DNA of 64,000 nucleotides from positions 256,001 to 320,000 of the forward strand of contig JBIJDH010000005.1 of the NCBI GenBank assembly GCA_044344255.1, in the 5' to 3' direction. The notes below the pieces were generated by a model, which had not been told where the DNA came from, searched no databases, and worked only from the letters and a program-made list of their open reading frames with translations. The position numbers and the translations under genes are program-made. Source of the DNA: Myxococcota bacterium (GTDB lineage Bacteria; Myxococcota_A; UBA796; UBA2385). The stretch's first letter is position 1; the number at the start of each line of letters is the position of its first letter. This document shows positions 21,000-29,778 of this stretch, piece by piece.

Positions 21000-22397
21000 T
21001 CAGCGCGTGTCCATCGCGGGGGCGGGATCGGCGGGGTTCACGGGCTGGCCGGCGCGCCACACGGCCACGATCTGCTGCGTGGCGCCGATGTCCTCGAGCG
21101 GATCGCCGCGGATGAGCAGCAGGTCGGCCGCCTTGCCCACCTCGACCGTCCCGTACTCGGTGTCGCCGTAGAGGGCGGCGGCCCGGGAGGTCGCGCCCAG
21201 GAGCACGTCGGCGGCGGGCACCCCCATTCGGTGCAGCCAGGCGAGCTCGGCGTGGATCGAGCTGCCTGCGAGGTCGGCCGGCAGCGGGCTGTCGGAGCCG
21301 GCGAGGATGACCACCCCAGCGGCCTGTGCGCGGGCGACGTTGCCCGGCCAGGCCTCCCGCCAGCGGTTGACCTCGCGACCGAAGTCGCCCACGACAGGGG
21401 CCTCTCCGAAGGCGAGGCCGGCACCCCCCTCCATCGTGGCGATGAGCGAGGCGGGGTGCAGCGCCCGGTCGAGCGCGCTCGGCGCCCAATGGCCCAGGGC
21501 GAGCCGGCCGGTGTTGTCATACGCGGCGCCGGTCCAGACCACCGGCACGCGGGCGGCGGCGATGAGCGCGGCCCCCTCGGCCGACAGCTCGCTCGTGAGC
21601 ACGCCGTGGACGAGGGCGTCGGCCCCGGCGGCGATGGCCATCCGGGCGTCCTCCTCGCGGCCGATGTGCACGAAGGCGCGCCGATCGTGGGCGTGGGCGG
21701 CCTTCACGAGGGCGTCGAGGCGGGCCTCGTCGATGTGGGCGGCGCCGGGCGGCAGCGAGTCGCAGATGATCTTGATGGCGTCCGCACCGTCAGCGATGGC
21801 CTGCAGCACGATGCCTTCGGCGTCCTCGGGGCGCTCGATCACCGGCACGAGGCGGCGGACGGCGCTCGACAAGGGCCAGGGCAGCAGGGCCTCGGCGGCG
21901 GGGATGGGGTGGCCTTCGGGGACGGTGATCGGCGAATTGGTGCGGCGCACGCGGGGCCCGAAGTCCTCGCCGCTCGCCAGCTTGGCGAGGGCGCGGTCCT
22001 GCATCCCGGCGGGGCCGCCCATGTCGAAGACGGTGGTGACCCCGGCGGCGAGCCAGGCCTGGAGCGAGTGCCGCGGGTCGGGTGTGGTGAGGGTGCCGGG
22101 CATCGCGACCGGCGCCGTGAGGTGGACGTGCGCGTCGACGAGGCCGGGGAGGAGCGTCAGGCCCGCCCCCTCGATGACCCGGCCCTCCGGTGGGGATTGC
22201 CCGGTCGGCCCCACAGCCGCGATCTTCCCGTCGCGGAGGGTCACGTCTTGGTGCGCGAGCAGCGCAGGACCGGTGGCGGGGAAGACCGAGACGTCGTGGA
22301 CGGTGACGGTCTCGACGGGGCCGAGGGTGACGAGGTCCGGGGCCTTCTTCCCCCCGCAGGCGAGCGCGGTGAGCAGCAGGTAGGCGGGGGTCATCAT
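21000..22397 (-). CDS. Amidohydrolase family lipoprotein
   Basis: ALAC lipobox, 'PGLVDAHVH', 'AGSD', 'GTVEVGKAADLLL'. Confidence 0.88.
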   Translation of the reverse strand: MMTPAYLLLTALACGGKKAPDLVTLGPVETVTVHDVSVFPATGPALLAHQDVTLRDGKIAAVGPTGQSPPEGRVIEGAGLTLLPGLVDAHVHLTAPVAMPGTLTTPDPRHSLQAWLAAGVTTVFDMGGPAGMQDRALAKLASGEDFGPRVRRTNSPITVPEGHPIPAAEALLPWPLSSAVRRLVPVIERPEDAEGIVLQAIADGADAIKIICDSLPPGAAHIDEARLDALVKAAHAHDRRAFVHIGREEDARMAIAAGADALVHGVLTSELSAEGAALIAAARVPVVWTGAAYDNTGRLALGHWAPSALDRALHPASLIATMEGGAGLAFGEAPVVGDFGREVNRWREAWPGNVARAQAAGVVILAGSDSPLPADLAGSSIHAELAWLHRMGVPAADVLLGATSRAAALYGDTEYGTVEVGKAADLLLIRGDPLEDIGATQQIVAVWRAGQPVNPADPAPAMDTR

Positions 22398-22638
22398 GTC
22401 GCCAGCTCGCAGCCAGAGAGAGGGTGGGTGTCGCGACGAGCGGGGCGCCCGAGCCCCGCGGGGGGCCGCGGGAGTGGGCCATCAGCGCAGGTTAACGGCG
22501 CTCGGTGGTGCCTTCAAGCGGCCACCGACCTGCCGGCGCTGCGCTGGCGCTCGTGTGGGTCCGCTCGACCGCCGGGCCGTCACCTCGCCCCGCTCGGTTA
22601 TGGCGGTCCGGCCCTCGCCCCTCCTGCCTGAGCCCGCC

Positions 22639-23829
22639 ATGCCCGCCCTCAGCCGCCGCTTCTTCAACACCGCCGGCCCCTGTCGGGCAGAGGATCATTA
22701 CATGCTCCCGCCGCTGCGGCGGCTGCCGGAGCTGCAGCGCCTCGTGGCGGAGCGCCAGTTCTACTCGCTACACGCGGCGCGACAGACTGGAAAGACCACG
22801 GCGATGCTGGCCTTCGCCGAGGAGCTCCGCACGAATGGCGCGGTCGCCCTTCACACATCCCTCGAGACCGCGCGCCAGACCCCCGCCGTCGAGGCGGCTG
22901 AACCGCGTTGGCTTCGAGCGATCTTCGACAGCGCGCGGTGGGCCCTCGTGCCCGGCGAGCGCCCCCCTCCGCTCGCCGAGGTCCTCGGCGGAGAGCCTGG
23001 CACGAGGCTCGGCACCTATCTGAGCGATTGGGCGGCGGCCCTCCACCCTCGCCCGCTGGTGCTCCTGTTCGACGAGGTGGACTGCGTCGAGGGTGAGGCG
23101 ATGGTGAGCCTCCTCGGTCAGCTTCGGGCCGGGTTCTCCCTTCGCCCGAGGGCCTTCCCCTCCTCCATCGCCCTCATCGGCATGCGCGACCCGAAGGACT
23201 ACCTTGTGGAGTCCAAGGGTGGAGCGCCGCCAAACCCCGGCTCCCCCTTCAACATCAAGGCGGCCTCTCTCACGTTGTCGAGCTTCACCCTCGAGGACGT
23301 GGCCGAGCTGTATGGGCAGCACGCGGGCGACACCGGCCAGCCCTTCACCGACGCCGCGATCGATCGGGCCTATCAGCTCAGCCAGGGGCAGCCCTTCCTG
23401 GTCAACGCGCTGGCCTATCACCTGACCCGGGAGCAGCCTGTCCCGACGCCCACCCCGATCACGGCGGCGGACATCGACCGCGCGAAGGAGCACCTCGTCC
23501 GCGCCCGCACCACCCATCTGGACAACCTGTCCCACCGCCTCTACGAGCCACGTGTGGCCGCGATCCTCCGGCCGATCCTGATGGGAGACCCTGTCCCCTC
23601 GGGCCGGGACGAAGACGTCGAATATTCGATTGACCTCGGCCTCATCCGACGGGAGTCGGGCGGCCTCGCGCTGGCGAACCCGATCTATCGGGAGGTGCTG
23701 CCGCGGGCCCTCTCGGCGACCCGGGAGATGTCGCTCGCCGATCCGTGGTGGCCCTGGCGCAGGGCGGGCGGGGGGCTCGATCTCCCCGCCCTGATCGATG
23801 CCCCTTCAGACGACGATCCCGCGGGGTAA
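22639..23829 (+). pseudogene. AAA-like (AAA_35-type) ATPase, apparently C-terminally truncated
   Basis: 'RFFNTAGPC', Walker A 'AARQTGKTT', Walker B 'LLFDEVD', 'SPFNIK', 'NPIYREV'. Family-like sequence stops after 'LDLPALIDA', followed by a short unrelated tail. Confidence 0.6.
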
Positions 23830-23850: not shown

Positions 23851-24099
23851 ATGGAGCTCGACCACCGAACCACCATCCTTCTCCCGCCTGGCGTACATCG
23901 GCGGCTCCAGCGCATCGCCGCGCGTCGCGGCACCAGCATGGGGGCCCTCATCCGTGAGGCCATCGAGAAGCAGTACGCGAGCGACGACGTCGAGCTGCGC
24001 CTCGACGCGCTCAAGGCCCTCTCCGAGCTCTCGCTGCCCGTGAGCAGCGTGGAGGGGATGAAGCGGGAGAGCGTCGAGCCGCCGATGGAGCTCCCTTGA
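23851..24099 (+). CDS. CopG/RHH-family antitoxin (VapB-like)
   Basis: 'RTTILL....HRRL..IA..RGTSMGALIREAI' ribbon-helix-helix; overlaps the PIN gene. Confidence 0.8.
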   Translation: MELDHRTTILLPPGVHRRLQRIAARRGTSMGALIREAIEKQYASDDVELRLDALKALSELSLPVSSVEGMKRESVEPPMELP

Positions 24100-24509
24100 T
24101 CCTCATCGACACGAACGTCTTCATGTACGTCGCGGGTCGTGAGCACCCGCACCGGGCGCCGAGCCGGCTCTTCTTGGAGCGCGTGGTGAAGGGTGAGATC
24201 TCCGCGGTCATTGACGCGGAGGTGCTCCAGGAGATCCTCCACCGCTACCGGGCCGTCGGGCGGTGGGAGGATGGGCGACGCGTCTACGACCTCGTCCGGA
24301 CCGTGGTCCCCGACGTGCTCGATGTGGGCGCCGAGATGATAGACCGCGCCCGCGCCCTGATGGAGCAGTACCCTGCGCTCCTTGCCCGGGACGCTGTCCA
24401 TGCGGCGGCGGTGATAGAGATCGGCGCCGAGGCCCTCTGCACCTGGGACAAGGACTTCGCGGTCATCCGCGAGATTCGGGTCGTCCAGCCCACCGAGCTG
24501 CTCGGATAG
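24096..24509 (+). CDS. vapC: PIN-domain toxin, VapC family
   Basis: 'ILIDTNVF', 'EVLQE', 'RDAVHAA', 'TWDKDF' acidic PIN motifs; TTG start coupled to the antitoxin stop. Confidence 0.9.
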   Translation: MILIDTNVFMYVAGREHPHRAPSRLFLERVVKGEISAVIDAEVLQEILHRYRAVGRWEDGRRVYDLVRTVVPDVLDVGAEMIDRARALMEQYPALLARDAVHAAAVIEIGAEALCTWDKDFAVIREIRVVQPTELLG

Positions 24510-24575: not shown

Positions 24576-24630
24576 CGTCCCCCTCCGCCGCCGCTGCGGC
24601 GGCACCTCCCCCATAAGATGGGGGAGGATG
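24576..24630 (-). repeat. Palindromic REP-like element, inverted copy
   Basis: Reverse complement reads CCTCCCCCATCTTATGGGGGAGGTGCCGCCGCAGCGGCGGCGGAGGGGGACG, matching the copies at 24685 and 27218. Confidence 0.85.
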
Positions 24631-24684: not shown

Positions 24685-24737
24685 TGTCCTCCCCCATCAT
24701 ATGGGGGAGGTGGCGCTCTGAGCGCCGGAGGGGGACG
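24685..24737 (+). repeat. Palindromic REP-like element opening tandem unit 1
   Basis: CCTCCCCCAT-CAT-ATGGGGGAGG hairpin followed by GGCGCT-CTG-AGCGCC hairpin and GAGGGGG. Confidence 0.85.
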
Positions 24738-26025
24738 CTGGGAGGCGCCCCGAATCGCGGTGAGTGAGCGTAGTCGCGGCCCGGTATGTAGAGGTAAGAT
24801 CGCGCCCCGGGATCTCTCGGGCCCGATGAGATAGTCTCGGCCGCCGAGGCCCGCACCATGACCGATCGCATCCGCTGGATCCAAGACGGGAGGGCGATGG
24901 ACCTCACGCTGGTCGGCCGCCTCCTCGCGCCCGAGTCGGTGGCGGGAGACGCGCACTGTCGGATTGGCGGTCAGGCGCACCTGTACCGGGTGCGGACGCC
25001 GACGGGCGAGGTCCGCGCGTGTAAGCTCGCGATCGACCCCGAGAACAACAGCCTGCTTCGTCGCGAGCACGACCACTACCAGCGCCTGCACCGGGACAGC
25101 GCGCGGGCCGCGGAGTGGCTGCTCCGCTGCCATGGGCAGGGAGAGCACGGGGGCCGCGCCTTCCTCGTGCTCGACTGGGTCGAGCAGAGCCTGCGGGACC
25201 GCTTCCCGACCGCCTCTGGCGCCCAGAACCTCGCGTCCGGCCCGGGCCCTACCCTCCGGGAGCGCCTCCGCTGGGCGGCGGCGGCCTGTGACACGATCGC
25301 GGCCTTCCACGCCGCAGCGGGCTCGACGATCATCCACCAGGACATCAAGCCGGGGAACTTCCTCGTCGCTGCCGAAGATCCCCCGCGCCTCCTGCTCTCC
25401 GATCTCGCCGGTAGCCGCGGCCTCCTTCGCAAGACCAATGGCCGCTCGACCACGCGCCCCGGCGCGGTGACGGAGGGCTACGCGCCGCCGGAGCTGGAGC
25501 TGCCCCAGGGCGTCCGCCGGCCCACCGTGCAGGTAGACCGCTTCTCACTGGCGGTGACGGTGTACGAGGTCGTGACCGGCCAGCGCCCGCTCAAGGCGGG
25601 CCTCAGCGGGGCCTTCAGCTCGGACGGCAAGCGCCTTCACGAGCTGCACAAGGAGGTGGTGCTGGGGGAGGGTCTGCCGAACGAGGAGGAGGAGGAGTAC
25701 CGGGTGCTCGGTGAGCGGGCCCTCCCCGAGCTGCTGCACATCAAGGGGACGCTGCTCGGCCCGCGCTTCGGGGAGCACCTCGTGCGGGCCTTCGGCGAAG
25801 GAGCCGAGGCCGAGCGGCGGGCGAAGCGCCTCGGCGACAAGCTGAAGGAGGCCCTCGCGGTGTCCCCGGAGGACCGGCGGGTGTCCCCGGACTCGCTGGC
25901 CGATCTCTGTCGGGACCTCGCCGACGCGGTGGGGGTCGAGCCCCCGAAGGTGGTGGAGGCGCCGCGGCCGCGCCCACTGCCGAGGCCGAATCAGGCGGGC
26001 TCAGTGGGGGTGCGCCGGGGGCCGC
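24685..26025 (+). repeat. Direct repeat copy 1 (1341 bp; REP + upstream region + kinase domain)
   Basis: Matches 27218-28558 at constant offset 2533. Only 3 mismatches noticed, all in REP loops; several alternative-frame ORFs in the track are identical between the copies. Confidence 0.95.
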
Positions 26026-27131
26026 CCTCGCCCGTGGAAGGGGCGGCGCCCTCTCCCGTTTCTTTGGATGCCGACGAGACGCCTGCAGCGGGGCCGGAGC
26101 CCCGGGAGTCTACGTGGGTCGCTCCGGAGGAGAGCCCGGCCCCAACACAGCCGCCCACCTATTCACCGCCGCCGCCGCCGCCGCCGCCGCCGGAGAACGC
26201 GCCGCGTCGTCCCTCGAACGACAAAGGTGAGGTGCCGCAAACGCAGGAGGGGCGCCCTGTCGGGGCCTCCGCTTCTGGCATCGGCGGCTCCGCGCTCTTG
26301 GGCGCCCTGGCGGCCTTTGCCGCGGTGGCGGGGTTGATCGTGTGGGCTTTGGGCGCGAGCGCCCCCTCTGGCGCGGAGGGGGACCTCACCTGGGTGACGG
26401 TGCCCGCCGGCGAGGGTGTTATCGGCGATGATGGTACCTTCGACGTGCAAAGCGACGAAAAACCGCGATTCCGGGTGAAGTTTGCGCGGTCTTTCAAGAT
26501 GTTGGAGACGGAGGTCACTAACCGACAGTACGCGGCGAAGAACCCAGACCACAGCCCGGTGGATGACAAGCCTGTCGTCAGTGTCAATTGGAATGATGCC
26601 AGGGCGTATTGTGCCGCGATTGGCGCGAGGCTGCCGACGGAGCTCGAGTGGGAGTTCGCCGTGCGGGCCGGCGGTGAGGGCGCGTACGGCCTCGGCGCAG
26701 AGGGCGTAGAGGTTACGGAGACCAACCTCCAGAGCTACGCTTGGTTGACGACCAACTCTGGCTAGAGGGTGCACGATGTGAGGCAGAAGAAGGCCAACGC
26801 CTGGGGCCTCTATGACCTCTGGGGTAACGTCTGGGAGTGGGTTGAGGATGGGTACTCGAAAAGAGCCTGGGCGGCGCTGTCGGCCGCAGGGACGTTGTTG
26901 ACCACTGGAGCGCGCTTGGTGACAGATCCACGCGTTGTTGACACGATTGATGACGAGGATGCGAACACGCCCCCCGCCCTCCGTGTCTTCCGCGGGGGCT
27001 CCGCCTGGTTCGGGCCCACATGGTTGCGCTCAGGGTACCGGCGCTGGGACGCGCCCGCGGTCTCGGACGCGAACCTCGGTTTTCGTTGCGTCTCGGCCCC
27101 CGCGCCCCGGCCCTTGAACCTTGCGCCTTGA
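24858..27131 (+). pseudogene. Ser/Thr kinase-Pro-rich linker-TM-FGE-sulfatase (SUMF1/CLec) protein, copy 1, interrupted by in-frame TAG at 26763-26765
   Basis: Kinase 'GGQAHLY', 'ACK', 'HQDIKPGN', 'GYAPPE'; TM; FGE 'TEVTN.QY', 'PVVSVNW', 'RLPTELEWE', then after TAG in the same frame '[15 protein letters not shown]', 'RGGSAW', 'LGFRCV'. Confidence 0.88.
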
Positions 27132-27180
27132 TCCTTGTGGTCTGGCCGGCAGAATGCGTACAGCGCTCGCGGAAATTGTC
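27009..27180 (+). other. Candidate DGR variable region 1 with 3' cis elements
   Basis: 22 codons (27009-27074) hypervariable relative to copy 2; conserved CCTTG-repeat tail 27111-27137 and 20-mer 27161-27180. Confidence 0.6.
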
Positions 27181-27217
27181 ATGAAGGGTCGGCCGGGGGG
27201 ATCCCTGCGGCTGTCCC

Positions 27218-28558
27218 TGTCCTCCCCCATCTTATGGGGGAGGTGGCGCTTTTAGCGCCGGAGGGGGACGCTGGGAGGCGCCCCGAATCGCGGTGAGTGA
27301 GCGTAGTCGCGGCCCGGTATGTAGAGGTAAGATCGCGCCCCGGGATCTCTCGGGCCCGATGAGATAGTCTCGGCCGCCGAGGCCCGCACCATGACCGATC
27401 GCATCCGCTGGATCCAAGACGGGAGGGCGATGGACCTCACGCTGGTCGGCCGCCTCCTCGCGCCCGAGTCGGTGGCGGGAGACGCGCACTGTCGGATTGG
27501 CGGTCAGGCGCACCTGTACCGGGTGCGGACGCCGACGGGCGAGGTCCGCGCGTGTAAGCTCGCGATCGACCCCGAGAACAACAGCCTGCTTCGTCGCGAG
27601 CACGACCACTACCAGCGCCTGCACCGGGACAGCGCGCGGGCCGCGGAGTGGCTGCTCCGCTGCCATGGGCAGGGAGAGCACGGGGGCCGCGCCTTCCTCG
27701 TGCTCGACTGGGTCGAGCAGAGCCTGCGGGACCGCTTCCCGACCGCCTCTGGCGCCCAGAACCTCGCGTCCGGCCCGGGCCCTACCCTCCGGGAGCGCCT
27801 CCGCTGGGCGGCGGCGGCCTGTGACACGATCGCGGCCTTCCACGCCGCAGCGGGCTCGACGATCATCCACCAGGACATCAAGCCGGGGAACTTCCTCGTC
27901 GCTGCCGAAGATCCCCCGCGCCTCCTGCTCTCCGATCTCGCCGGTAGCCGCGGCCTCCTTCGCAAGACCAATGGCCGCTCGACCACGCGCCCCGGCGCGG
28001 TGACGGAGGGCTACGCGCCGCCGGAGCTGGAGCTGCCCCAGGGCGTCCGCCGGCCCACCGTGCAGGTAGACCGCTTCTCACTGGCGGTGACGGTGTACGA
28101 GGTCGTGACCGGCCAGCGCCCGCTCAAGGCGGGCCTCAGCGGGGCCTTCAGCTCGGACGGCAAGCGCCTTCACGAGCTGCACAAGGAGGTGGTGCTGGGG
28201 GAGGGTCTGCCGAACGAGGAGGAGGAGGAGTACCGGGTGCTCGGTGAGCGGGCCCTCCCCGAGCTGCTGCACATCAAGGGGACGCTGCTCGGCCCGCGCT
28301 TCGGGGAGCACCTCGTGCGGGCCTTCGGCGAAGGAGCCGAGGCCGAGCGGCGGGCGAAGCGCCTCGGCGACAAGCTGAAGGAGGCCCTCGCGGTGTCCCC
28401 GGAGGACCGGCGGGTGTCCCCGGACTCGCTGGCCGATCTCTGTCGGGACCTCGCCGACGCGGTGGGGGTCGAGCCCCCGAAGGTGGTGGAGGCGCCGCGG
28501 CCGCGCCCACTGCCGAGGCCGAATCAGGCGGGCTCAGTGGGGGTGCGCCGGGGGCCGC
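27218..28558 (+). repeat. Direct repeat copy 2 (1341 bp), starting with a REP-like element
   Basis: Matches 24685-26025. Confidence 0.95.
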
Positions 28559-29720
28559 GTCGCCGGTCGCGGAGGCGCCGTTACCCCGGTCGCCGGTGTC
28601 TCCCGGAGTCGCCGCGGCGCCAACTGTGGGGCCAGAGCCGCAGGATTCCGCGTGGGTCGCGCCGGAGGAGAGCCCGACCCCCAGGCGACCGCCCGCCGAG
28701 GCGCCGTCGCCTCCCCGTCCGCGCAAGGAAGCGGTCCGGGGCGTACCAAAGACTCCGCCTCGTGCCTTGCCGGACGCCAAGGCGGGGCGGTCCAGTGGCC
28801 TTCCTTGGATGGCAGCCCTCGTCGGCCTGGTGCTCGGGTCAGTGTCGATCATCGGCTGCCTTGGGTTTGTCGGCAGGCAATTGGAGGGCCTATTTGAAGC
28901 GACTGGTGATGCCATCGACCCCAGGCCCGTCTCGTTGGGGAGCGAGGTCCCCCCCTCCGTTGCGGTGGGGAACCTCACCTGGGTGACCGTACCCGCGAGC
29001 GAGGGTGTCATCGGCGATGATGGTACCTCCAACGTGGAAAGCGACGAGAAGCCCCGCTTCCGGGTGAGGTTCACACGGTCCTTCCAGATGCTGGAGACGG
29101 AGGTCACCAACCGACAGTACGCGGCCAAGAACAGCGGCCACAGCCCTGTCAATGACAAGCCTGTCGTCAAGGTCAACTGGAGTGACGCCCAGACGTACTG
29201 TGCCGCGATTGGCGCGAGGCTGCCGACGGAGCTCGAGTGGGAATACGCCGCGCGGGCCGGCGGCGAGGGCGCTTACGGCCTCGGCGCAGGGGGCGTGGAG
29301 GTCACCGAGGCCAACCTTCAGAGCTACGCCTGGTTGACGACCAATTCTGGCGACACAGTGCGGGATGTGAGGCAGAGGGAGCCCAACGCTTGGGGCCTCT
29401 ACGACCTCTGGGGAAACGTCTGGGAGTGGGTGGAGGATGGGTACTCGGGCGAGGCCTGGGCGGCGCTGTCCGCCTCCGGGACCTTGTTGACCAGCGGTGC
29501 CCGTTTGGTGACAGATCCGGGCTTCGTGGCTACGATTGGTGACAATGGTGCGAACACTCCCCCTTCTCACCGTGTATTCCGTGGGGGTTCCGCGTGGGGC
29601 GGGCCCAAGTGGTTGCGCTCGGGCGACCGGCTCAGGAACGAGTCCACGTCCTCGGGCGTGCTCCTCGGTTTTCGTTGCGTTTTGGCCGCTGCGCCCCAGC
29701 CCTTGAACCTTGCGCCTTGA
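27391..29720 (+). pseudogene. Ser/Thr kinase-linker-TM-FGE-sulfatase protein, copy 2, 1-bp frameshift near 28558
   Basis: Kinase frame (27391) and FGE frame (ORF 28596-29720) differ. Adding one base at ~28558 restores G-P-P-S-P-V as in copy 1. Confidence 0.88.
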
Positions 29721-29778
29721 TCCTTGGTGTAGGGGTTGTCCGGCGGGCTGAACGCGCGCAGCGCTCGCGGAAATTGTC
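29598..29778 (+). other. Candidate DGR variable region 2 with 3' cis elements
   Basis: 22 codons 29598-29663; tail 29700-29726 and 20-mer 29759-29778 identical to copy 1. Confidence 0.6.

Follow-up and report, generated by a model that had tools for sequence, protein, structure and literature searches.

We find that the last variable codons of two tandem, paralogous receptor-type Ser/Thr kinase genes, within the 64,000-nucleotide stretch of DNA analysed here (the window), were very probably written by a diversity-generating retroelement (DGR) in an ancestor, after which the cassette was lost, the variable regions (VRs) were left frozen or drifting, and both genes were broken; the two genes would then be orphan leftovers of DGR targets. 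In a DGR a template repeat (TR) is reverse-transcribed with random bases placed opposite its adenines, and the cDNA homes into the 3' end of a target gene, a process of adenine-specific mutagenic retrohoming. The codon statistics, the overlap of the changes with the adenines of a homologous template (L097) and the TTG-repeat tails downstream suggest that both genes were once targets, and since the assembly lacks the element, neither gene is intact and the VRs no longer vary, they look like leftovers. The assembly to which the window belongs (G000) is of 8.18 Mb in 83 contigs and is 95% complete.

The two genes each carry one hydrophobic helix. Their features are as follows.

24858–27131, forward strand: copy 1, a Ser/Thr kinase – Pro-rich linker – transmembrane (TM) – FGE/CLec gene, broken by an in-frame TAG (open frame of 635 aa, last base 26765)
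27391–29720, forward strand: copy 2, of the same architecture, with the kinase and the linker–TM–FGE part in different frames
26295–26351, forward strand: transmembrane helix predicted for copy 1 (residues 480–498, mean hydropathy 2.4)
28815–28871, forward strand: transmembrane helix predicted for copy 2 (placed by way of residues 476–494 of protein P0131, hydropathy 2.1)
26391–27092, forward strand: FGE-sulfatase/C-type-lectin-fold domain of copy 1 (PF03781)
28980–29681, forward strand: FGE-sulfatase/C-type-lectin-fold domain of copy 2 (PF03781)
24721–26025, forward strand: stretch of 1305 nt (upstream region and kinase) exactly identical to 27254–28558
27221–27243, no strand assigned: REP-like palindrome, lying upstream of the duplication, with further copies at 24605–24627 and 24688–24710
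26763–26765, forward strand: premature TAG within the FGE domain of copy 1, 5' of VR core 1
28558–28559, forward strand: frameshift of copy 2, precisely at the end of the identity with copy 1

The kinase domain matches PF00069 (E = 7e-11); its catalytic-loop, APE-like and lysine motifs are recognisable, with DLA in place of DFG, and we take it to be a putative kinase. Among solved structures the FGE domain has as its top match the Treponema DGR variable protein TvpA (PDB 2y3c, E = 1.3e-14). Outside the identical 1305 nt the two copies are ~82% identical, and the REP-like palindrome has 23 BLAST matches over 13 contigs. Copy 2 would have acquired its copy-1-identical kinase half by recent duplication or gene conversion, and an off-frame junction would account for the frameshift.

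With the TAG lying ahead of VR1 and copy 2 frameshifted, translation in G000 does not join either VR to a kinase. The initial annotation had noticed neither lesion. Neither window copy encodes the kinase, the TM helix and the whole sensor domain in a single chain; such a chain is present in P0131, an intact 776-aa copy-2 allele from a relative, and in the related contig L109. A parent protein of kinase–transmembrane–FGE/CLec receptor type is supported, and this part of the initial annotation, which had proposed membrane receptor kinases with a hypervariable external face, stands; present variation is not supported, the VRs being unchanged in the contigs described below and both window genes broken. 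The intact allele would act as a ligand-gated kinase with its lectin domain outside and a fixed, formerly DGR-written binding face. A TM–FGE protein could be made from copy 2 by way of an internal start (compare the database protein P0002). Recoding of TAG was considered and rejected, an internal stop being found in just 1 of 48 FGE matches. A linker frameshift is seen in another related contig, L002, and is absent from L109.

The variable regions themselves are short.

27009–27074, forward strand: variable-region core 1, 22 codons
29598–29663, forward strand: variable-region core 2, 22 codons

Residues change at 13 of these 22 codons, compared with 40 of the other 228 in an alignment of 250 codons without gaps (Fisher p = 5e-5). 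The ratio of mismatches at codon positions 1 and 2 to those at position 3 is 16:3 in the VR as against 45:59 elsewhere (p = 0.001). Our recount bears out the initial annotation in that 12 of the 13 changed codons keep position 3, and the codon pairs that it listed match the sequence. Its caveat that high GC3 alone could preserve third positions was well placed: GC3 is 0.91 and 1.0 in the two VRs, and the conservation of position 3 by itself (12/13 against 25/40 changed codons elsewhere) is not significant (p = 0.08). The flanks, described there as mostly silent in their differences, are so upstream, where 209 codons have 44 silent and 37 residue changes; downstream this fails, with 1 silent and 3 residue changes in 19 codons.

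As a control we took 123 distinct FGE domains (from the DGR loci examined and from G000, with duplicate loci removed), which gave 149 pairs at <30% divergence, 36 of them divergence-matched, and scored each pair over the same 22 codons as the mismatches at positions 1 and 2 minus those at position 3. The copy 1/copy 2 pair scores 13. Other matched pairs scoring at least 8 are a second pair of G000 genes, C24/C28 (16), and three L123 paralogue pairs (16, 13 and 8) that are themselves VR-like; the remaining 31 of the 36 score at most 4, but they are drawn from a handful of related clusters and are not independent, so that the matched-pair control is a rough null. Among all 149 pairs the extra high scorers are two more distant ones, at 13 and 8, with third positions saturated in both.

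The adenines of the best-fitting template, L097, underlie 16 of the 19 differing VR bases (15 of 16 at codon positions 1–2; p = 1.5e-4). The 3 other core differences miss them, and the flanking parts of the 108-nt segment contain 5 further changes, all silent. The other eight templates place 11–14 of the 19 on adenines and all nine have p < 0.025; these nine are homologues rather than cognate templates, were picked by likeness and are not independent, and the best has 17–20 non-adenine mismatches. Because the true template was not found, adenine specificity is judged here from homologous templates.

That these templates belong to DGRs is clear from the loci themselves. Matches to bAvd, found in 9 of the 41 genomes searched and in 2 of 21 from the same family, adjoin RTs, templates and FGE targets, and over 18 template–VR pairs (from the bAvd loci and nine loci found by pattern) 259 of 274 mismatches are at adenines; the loci are therefore real DGRs. 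The window VRs share their register with the 20 VRs of the DGR loci examined, and in both copies an FGE-type CLec domain carries the VR at its 3' end. Across 154 genomes of the order, the FGE domain has matches at E ≤ 1e-45 only in G000, G003 and G025. The one in G025 belongs to target 1 of a DGR, beside an Avd-like gene, a template and an RT. Closer homologues (P0003, P0005 and P0021, 56–62% identity, all on one 16,953-bp contig) vary, as judged from the proteins alone, at the same codons and around the same fixed residues as the window VRs. G003 has a kinase-bearing orthologue without a TTG tail, and an RT gene at L195.

Downstream of the VRs, each copy has a tail of the kind found after DGR targets.

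27112–27177, forward strand: DGR-target-type 3' tail 1, with CCTTG repeats, a decayed hairpin and GCGGAAATT
29701–29775, forward strand: DGR-target-type 3' tail 2, with CCTTG repeats, a 4-bp stem with GCA loop (29754–29764) and GCGGAAATT

With 4 and 6 TTG per 70 nt, the window tails take the first two ranks among 42 FGE ends of G000; 17 of 18 real VRs have at least 3, and such a TTG-repeat tail is typical of real targets and not of templates. The hairpin has at most 4 bp and lies outside the predicted minimum-energy fold, whereas stems of 6–10 bp occur in 9 of the 20 VRs of DGR loci. In a survey that covers IMH, inverted repeats and the kinase class of DGR targets (PMC5758913), a GC-rich inverted repeat is given downstream of 34% of DGRs, so it is not universal. 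Taken with the codon bias, the 16 of 19 differences on template adenines and the homologous G025 target, the tails uphold the earlier proposal that the VRs were written by DGR-type adenine mutagenesis. In the course of events that we propose, about 22 last variable codons of the two paralogous kinase genes would have been rewritten in an ancestor, the Avd–template–RT cassette would subsequently have been lost, and the VRs would then have frozen and begun to drift while the 3' hairpin decayed.

The initial annotation saw no RT, Avd or template in the window, and this holds across the whole of the 95%-complete assembly. No DGR-clade RT was found in G000, where the sole RVT_1 match is retron-like and was rejected as a DGR RT; tblastn with 19 DGR RTs gave no match at E < 0.01, and a profile of the same 19, applied to all six reading frames without halting at stops, returned only the retron (E = 1.5e-9; next 0.16). 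G000 has no match to PF22296 or PF05635, that is, neither bAvd nor IVP. BLASTn of the VRs against the whole genome with short words, the check that had been proposed, returned the two window copies only and no template. Together with the missing RT, this goes a long way towards the outcome that had been named as refuting the idea of DGR targets diversified in trans, the lack of a template and RT. An adenine-tolerant scan with 14 of the 48 FGE matches found no template in G000, the best non-self matches having at least 18 non-adenine mismatches, and the matches of a profile of 19 templates were all gene ends, none with more than 2 AAC. Pattern scans for a cognate template gave 9 and 1 loci in genome_contigs, none of them cognate (best, 17 non-adenine mismatches), and 0 loci in viral_contigs. 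At 95% completeness in 83 contigs the absence of the cassette is not proven. One contig, C8, breaks off inside a further FGE gene paralogous to C24/C28, a little short of the VR, and on both counts the cassette may be unassembled.

The two genes of that other pair, C24:798–1550 and C28:451–1158, differ at 22 of 108 bases, and 21 of the 22 differences fall on adenines of relatives' templates (L083 and L085) of a class unlike that which fits the window. G000 thus carries the scars of two templates and the cassette of neither.

At least half of the region's words are contained in 20 runs, all of them lake or freshwater metagenomes, with no RNA dataset among them; contigs of four were compared, none a flagged source. 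Contigs from these 2020–2024 samples show no VR variants, VR1 being unchanged in 4 of 4 runs and VR2 in the 3 of 3 that cover it, where contigs drop rare variants. Among the database copies of the copy-2 domain that were returned, P0001, P0002, P0129 and P0130 share VR2 (15 contigs, not independent). The allele P0131 differs from copy 2 at 16 of its first 386 residues, at 2 of 127 in the linker and at 21 of 138 in the first half of the domain, compared with 0 of the 69 that precede the VR and 1 of 22 inside it. The sole VR change, Pro to Leu, is at a non-adenine codon that is CCC in the window and in the templates. This conservation of VR2 fits a VR that would be frozen, though the mosaic pattern of the differences means that the sharing of the VR may be recent. 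Since the assembly yielded neither a template nor a DGR RT or Avd, the contigs examined show no variant VRs and neither VR is in frame with a kinase, the earlier suggestion that the VRs are being diversified in trans at present is not upheld.

The same data bear on the possibility that the lesions and the duplicate are assembly errors or a strain chimera. The exact identity over 1305 nt would be in keeping with such an error, one contig of run X5 joins 24720 to 27254 and so omits copy 1, and the linker frameshift of L002 is absent from L109. The TAG, however, is unchanged in contigs of 3 of the 4 lake runs examined; one X5 contig runs across the copy 2 frameshift with no gap, and two further contigs begin 30 letters before it; and among the pieces listed for run X16 the kinase contig has a depth of 10.4, about twice that of the unique pieces (2.5–6.4). 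X5 also has copy-1 pieces, its contig without copy 1 may reflect either a deletion or an assembly path through the repeat, and all copy-1 proteins in the database end at the TAG (10 contigs, the source sample possibly among them). We regard an artefact as extremely unlikely. Ordinary divergence of the paralogues, in a ligand-binding loop under relaxed or positive selection with high GC3 preserving the third positions, is very improbable. It would accommodate the non-significant position-3 comparison and the GC3 of the VRs, the template adenines are at exposed positions that could vary anyway, and no template is present in G000; but 31 of the 36 matched pairs do not reach such a score, and selection on residues gives no account of a non-coding DGR-type tail in both copies or of the kinship with a verified target.

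A rival that accepts the DGR is that the two genes are live remote targets, rewritten in trans by a cassette lying in an assembly gap or an unbinned contig and of use in strains with intact alleles. The target-side marks exist, the assembly is incomplete and C8 breaks before a VR, the C24/C28 pair is very clean, bAvd occurs within the family and an intact allele is known. Against this, no fragment of RT, Avd or template was found in G000, the 2020–2024 contigs cross both VRs unchanged with VR2 the same in the database copies returned, C24/C28 require the other template class, the window genes are broken and the hairpin is decayed; live targeting is thus unlikely. Quite improbable is the fuller form, in which a hidden cassette with at least two template classes rewrites in trans, in this lake bacterium, the external binding surface of receptor kinases that cross the membrane once, intact alleles being kept in some strains, as a form of adaptive-receptor signalling. 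If it were true, it would offer testable hypermutated transmembrane receptor kinases outside the cyanobacteria. Our preferred reading remains that of ancestral writing followed by loss of the cassette.

Kinase–CLec targets and orphan DGR leftovers are both published kinds, and no new mechanism is involved. Kinase–CLec targets, remote targets and remnants have been described in cyanobacteria (Vallota-Eastman et al. 2020, PMC7517822). The cyanobacterial proteins resemble those of the window in having a Ser/Thr kinase with a C-terminal CLec domain and 3' VR, recent duplication of paralogues, TM helices in some, and a paralogue with remnant TR–VR homology and no RT nearby; unlike G000, these genomes keep a DGR elsewhere, and most of the targets are predicted to be cytosolic. 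By the tests made, the window host is no close relative of the cyanobacterial hosts, and both of its genes are broken. Treponema denticola isolates in which the core DGR is missing keep leftover target genes (PMC4891356), and here too RT and TR are absent from the genome, most differences between the VRs and the templates of relatives fall on adenines and, as in G000, there are several orphan targets of FGE-type CLec fold. For these, other isolates of the species supply the cognate template, and the proteins targeted are lipoproteins, whereas the window has only order-level templates and its targets are membrane kinases. The clade-5 cellular DGRs of multicellular bacteria, such as that of Thiohalocapsa PB-PSB1, resemble the window in having CLec targets that carry kinase or TM domains, in showing changes at positions 1 and 2 of codons and in having loci diversified in trans, but these loci are actively diversified in natural populations, and their genomes contain both RT and TR (Dore et al. 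2024, PMC10907252). In sequence class, the PB-PSB1 template (L104) agrees with those that fit the window. We found no literature on DGRs in Myxococcota.

The window genes resemble DGR targets, but the RT, template and Avd of an active DGR were not found, and a VR signature by itself is no indication of a working DGR. They add one more case of orphaned targets, whose fate would be freezing, drift, gene conversion and pseudogenisation, in a cassette-less genome that bears the scars of two template classes. The nearest complete system is the two-target DGR of G025 (L089, L097 and L192, the first two being the same cassette). The domain of its target 1 is 52% identical to that of copy 2 and has the same VR register, and the target tail likewise has TTG repeats, a GNA hairpin and a CGGAA-TT motif; unlike the window, G025 has a complete cassette, 8-bp hairpins, 29 of 30 template–VR mismatches at adenines and non-kinase N-termini. 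The G025 DGR lies behind what we take, from its motifs, to be a MoxR-like ATPase.

A second orphan variable region (VR) pair is present in the genome that carries the window, together with a related gene of the FGE (C-type-lectin-fold) type:

Contig C24, 798–1550, minus strand: FGE gene, member of the orphan VR pair
Contig C28, 451–1158, plus strand: FGE gene, the other member of the pair
Contig C8, 7188–7783: FGE paralogue of these two, broken off at the contig end right before the VR

Of the differences between the C24 and C28 genes, 21 out of 22 fall on adenines of the templates of relatives, and the templates that fit belong to another class than that of the window; the two genes also have a repeat tail in common. 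The rest of the C8 paralogue beyond the contig end is absent from the assembly, and an unassembled cassette could adjoin this missing part. FGE-sulfatase domain matches number 48 in the whole assembly, many of them within long multidomain frames. The sole reverse transcriptase (RT) of the assembly is the following:

L001, 721–2508 (contig C2): retron-like RT, 595 aa

Its best matches are the retron Ec67 and St85 families, with scores below the family cut-offs.

DGR cassettes with FGE targets were found in two genomes of the same family, G002 and G019 (loci L082, L084, L091–L095), which have 6 and 1 bAvd matches, respectively. A genome of the same order, G025, holds a further system:

L097 (= L089, G025 contig C77): complete two-target DGR with an HTH-fused Avd-like gene, template and RT

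The ATPase ahead of this DGR we take, by motif reading, to be MoxR-like. An array of 7 FGE genes with VR-like ends and tails in common occupies 1100–10700 of L123, within 11.5 kb of a metagenome contig, and no RT was found in the DNA of this contig that was examined.

L109 carries the kinase-TM-FGE orthologue (50–54%) in intact form, and in L002 it has a frameshift:

L002, 2852–2953: stretch of the orthologue compared with L109

The VR-equivalent is two codons shorter and has no DGR tail, and two neighbouring codons within it are not the same in both assemblies.

In the metagenome run X5, one contig connects window 24720 to 27254, omitting copy 1; either the assembly traversed the repeat, or some members of the population truly lack this stretch. 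The surroundings of copy 1 contain:

Window 22396–23829: AAA_35-like ATPase frame
Window 24096–24509: VapC-like gene with a PIN domain, immediately upstream of copy 1
Window 24605–24627, 24688–24710 and 27221–27243: REP-like palindrome copies

Each duplicated kinase stretch has one palindrome just upstream; the family gives 23 BLAST hits spread over 13 contigs, with several copies at the end of C24. A short putative antitoxin gene precedes the PIN-domain gene, and the ATPase frame, which looks truncated, extends into this probable antitoxin region.
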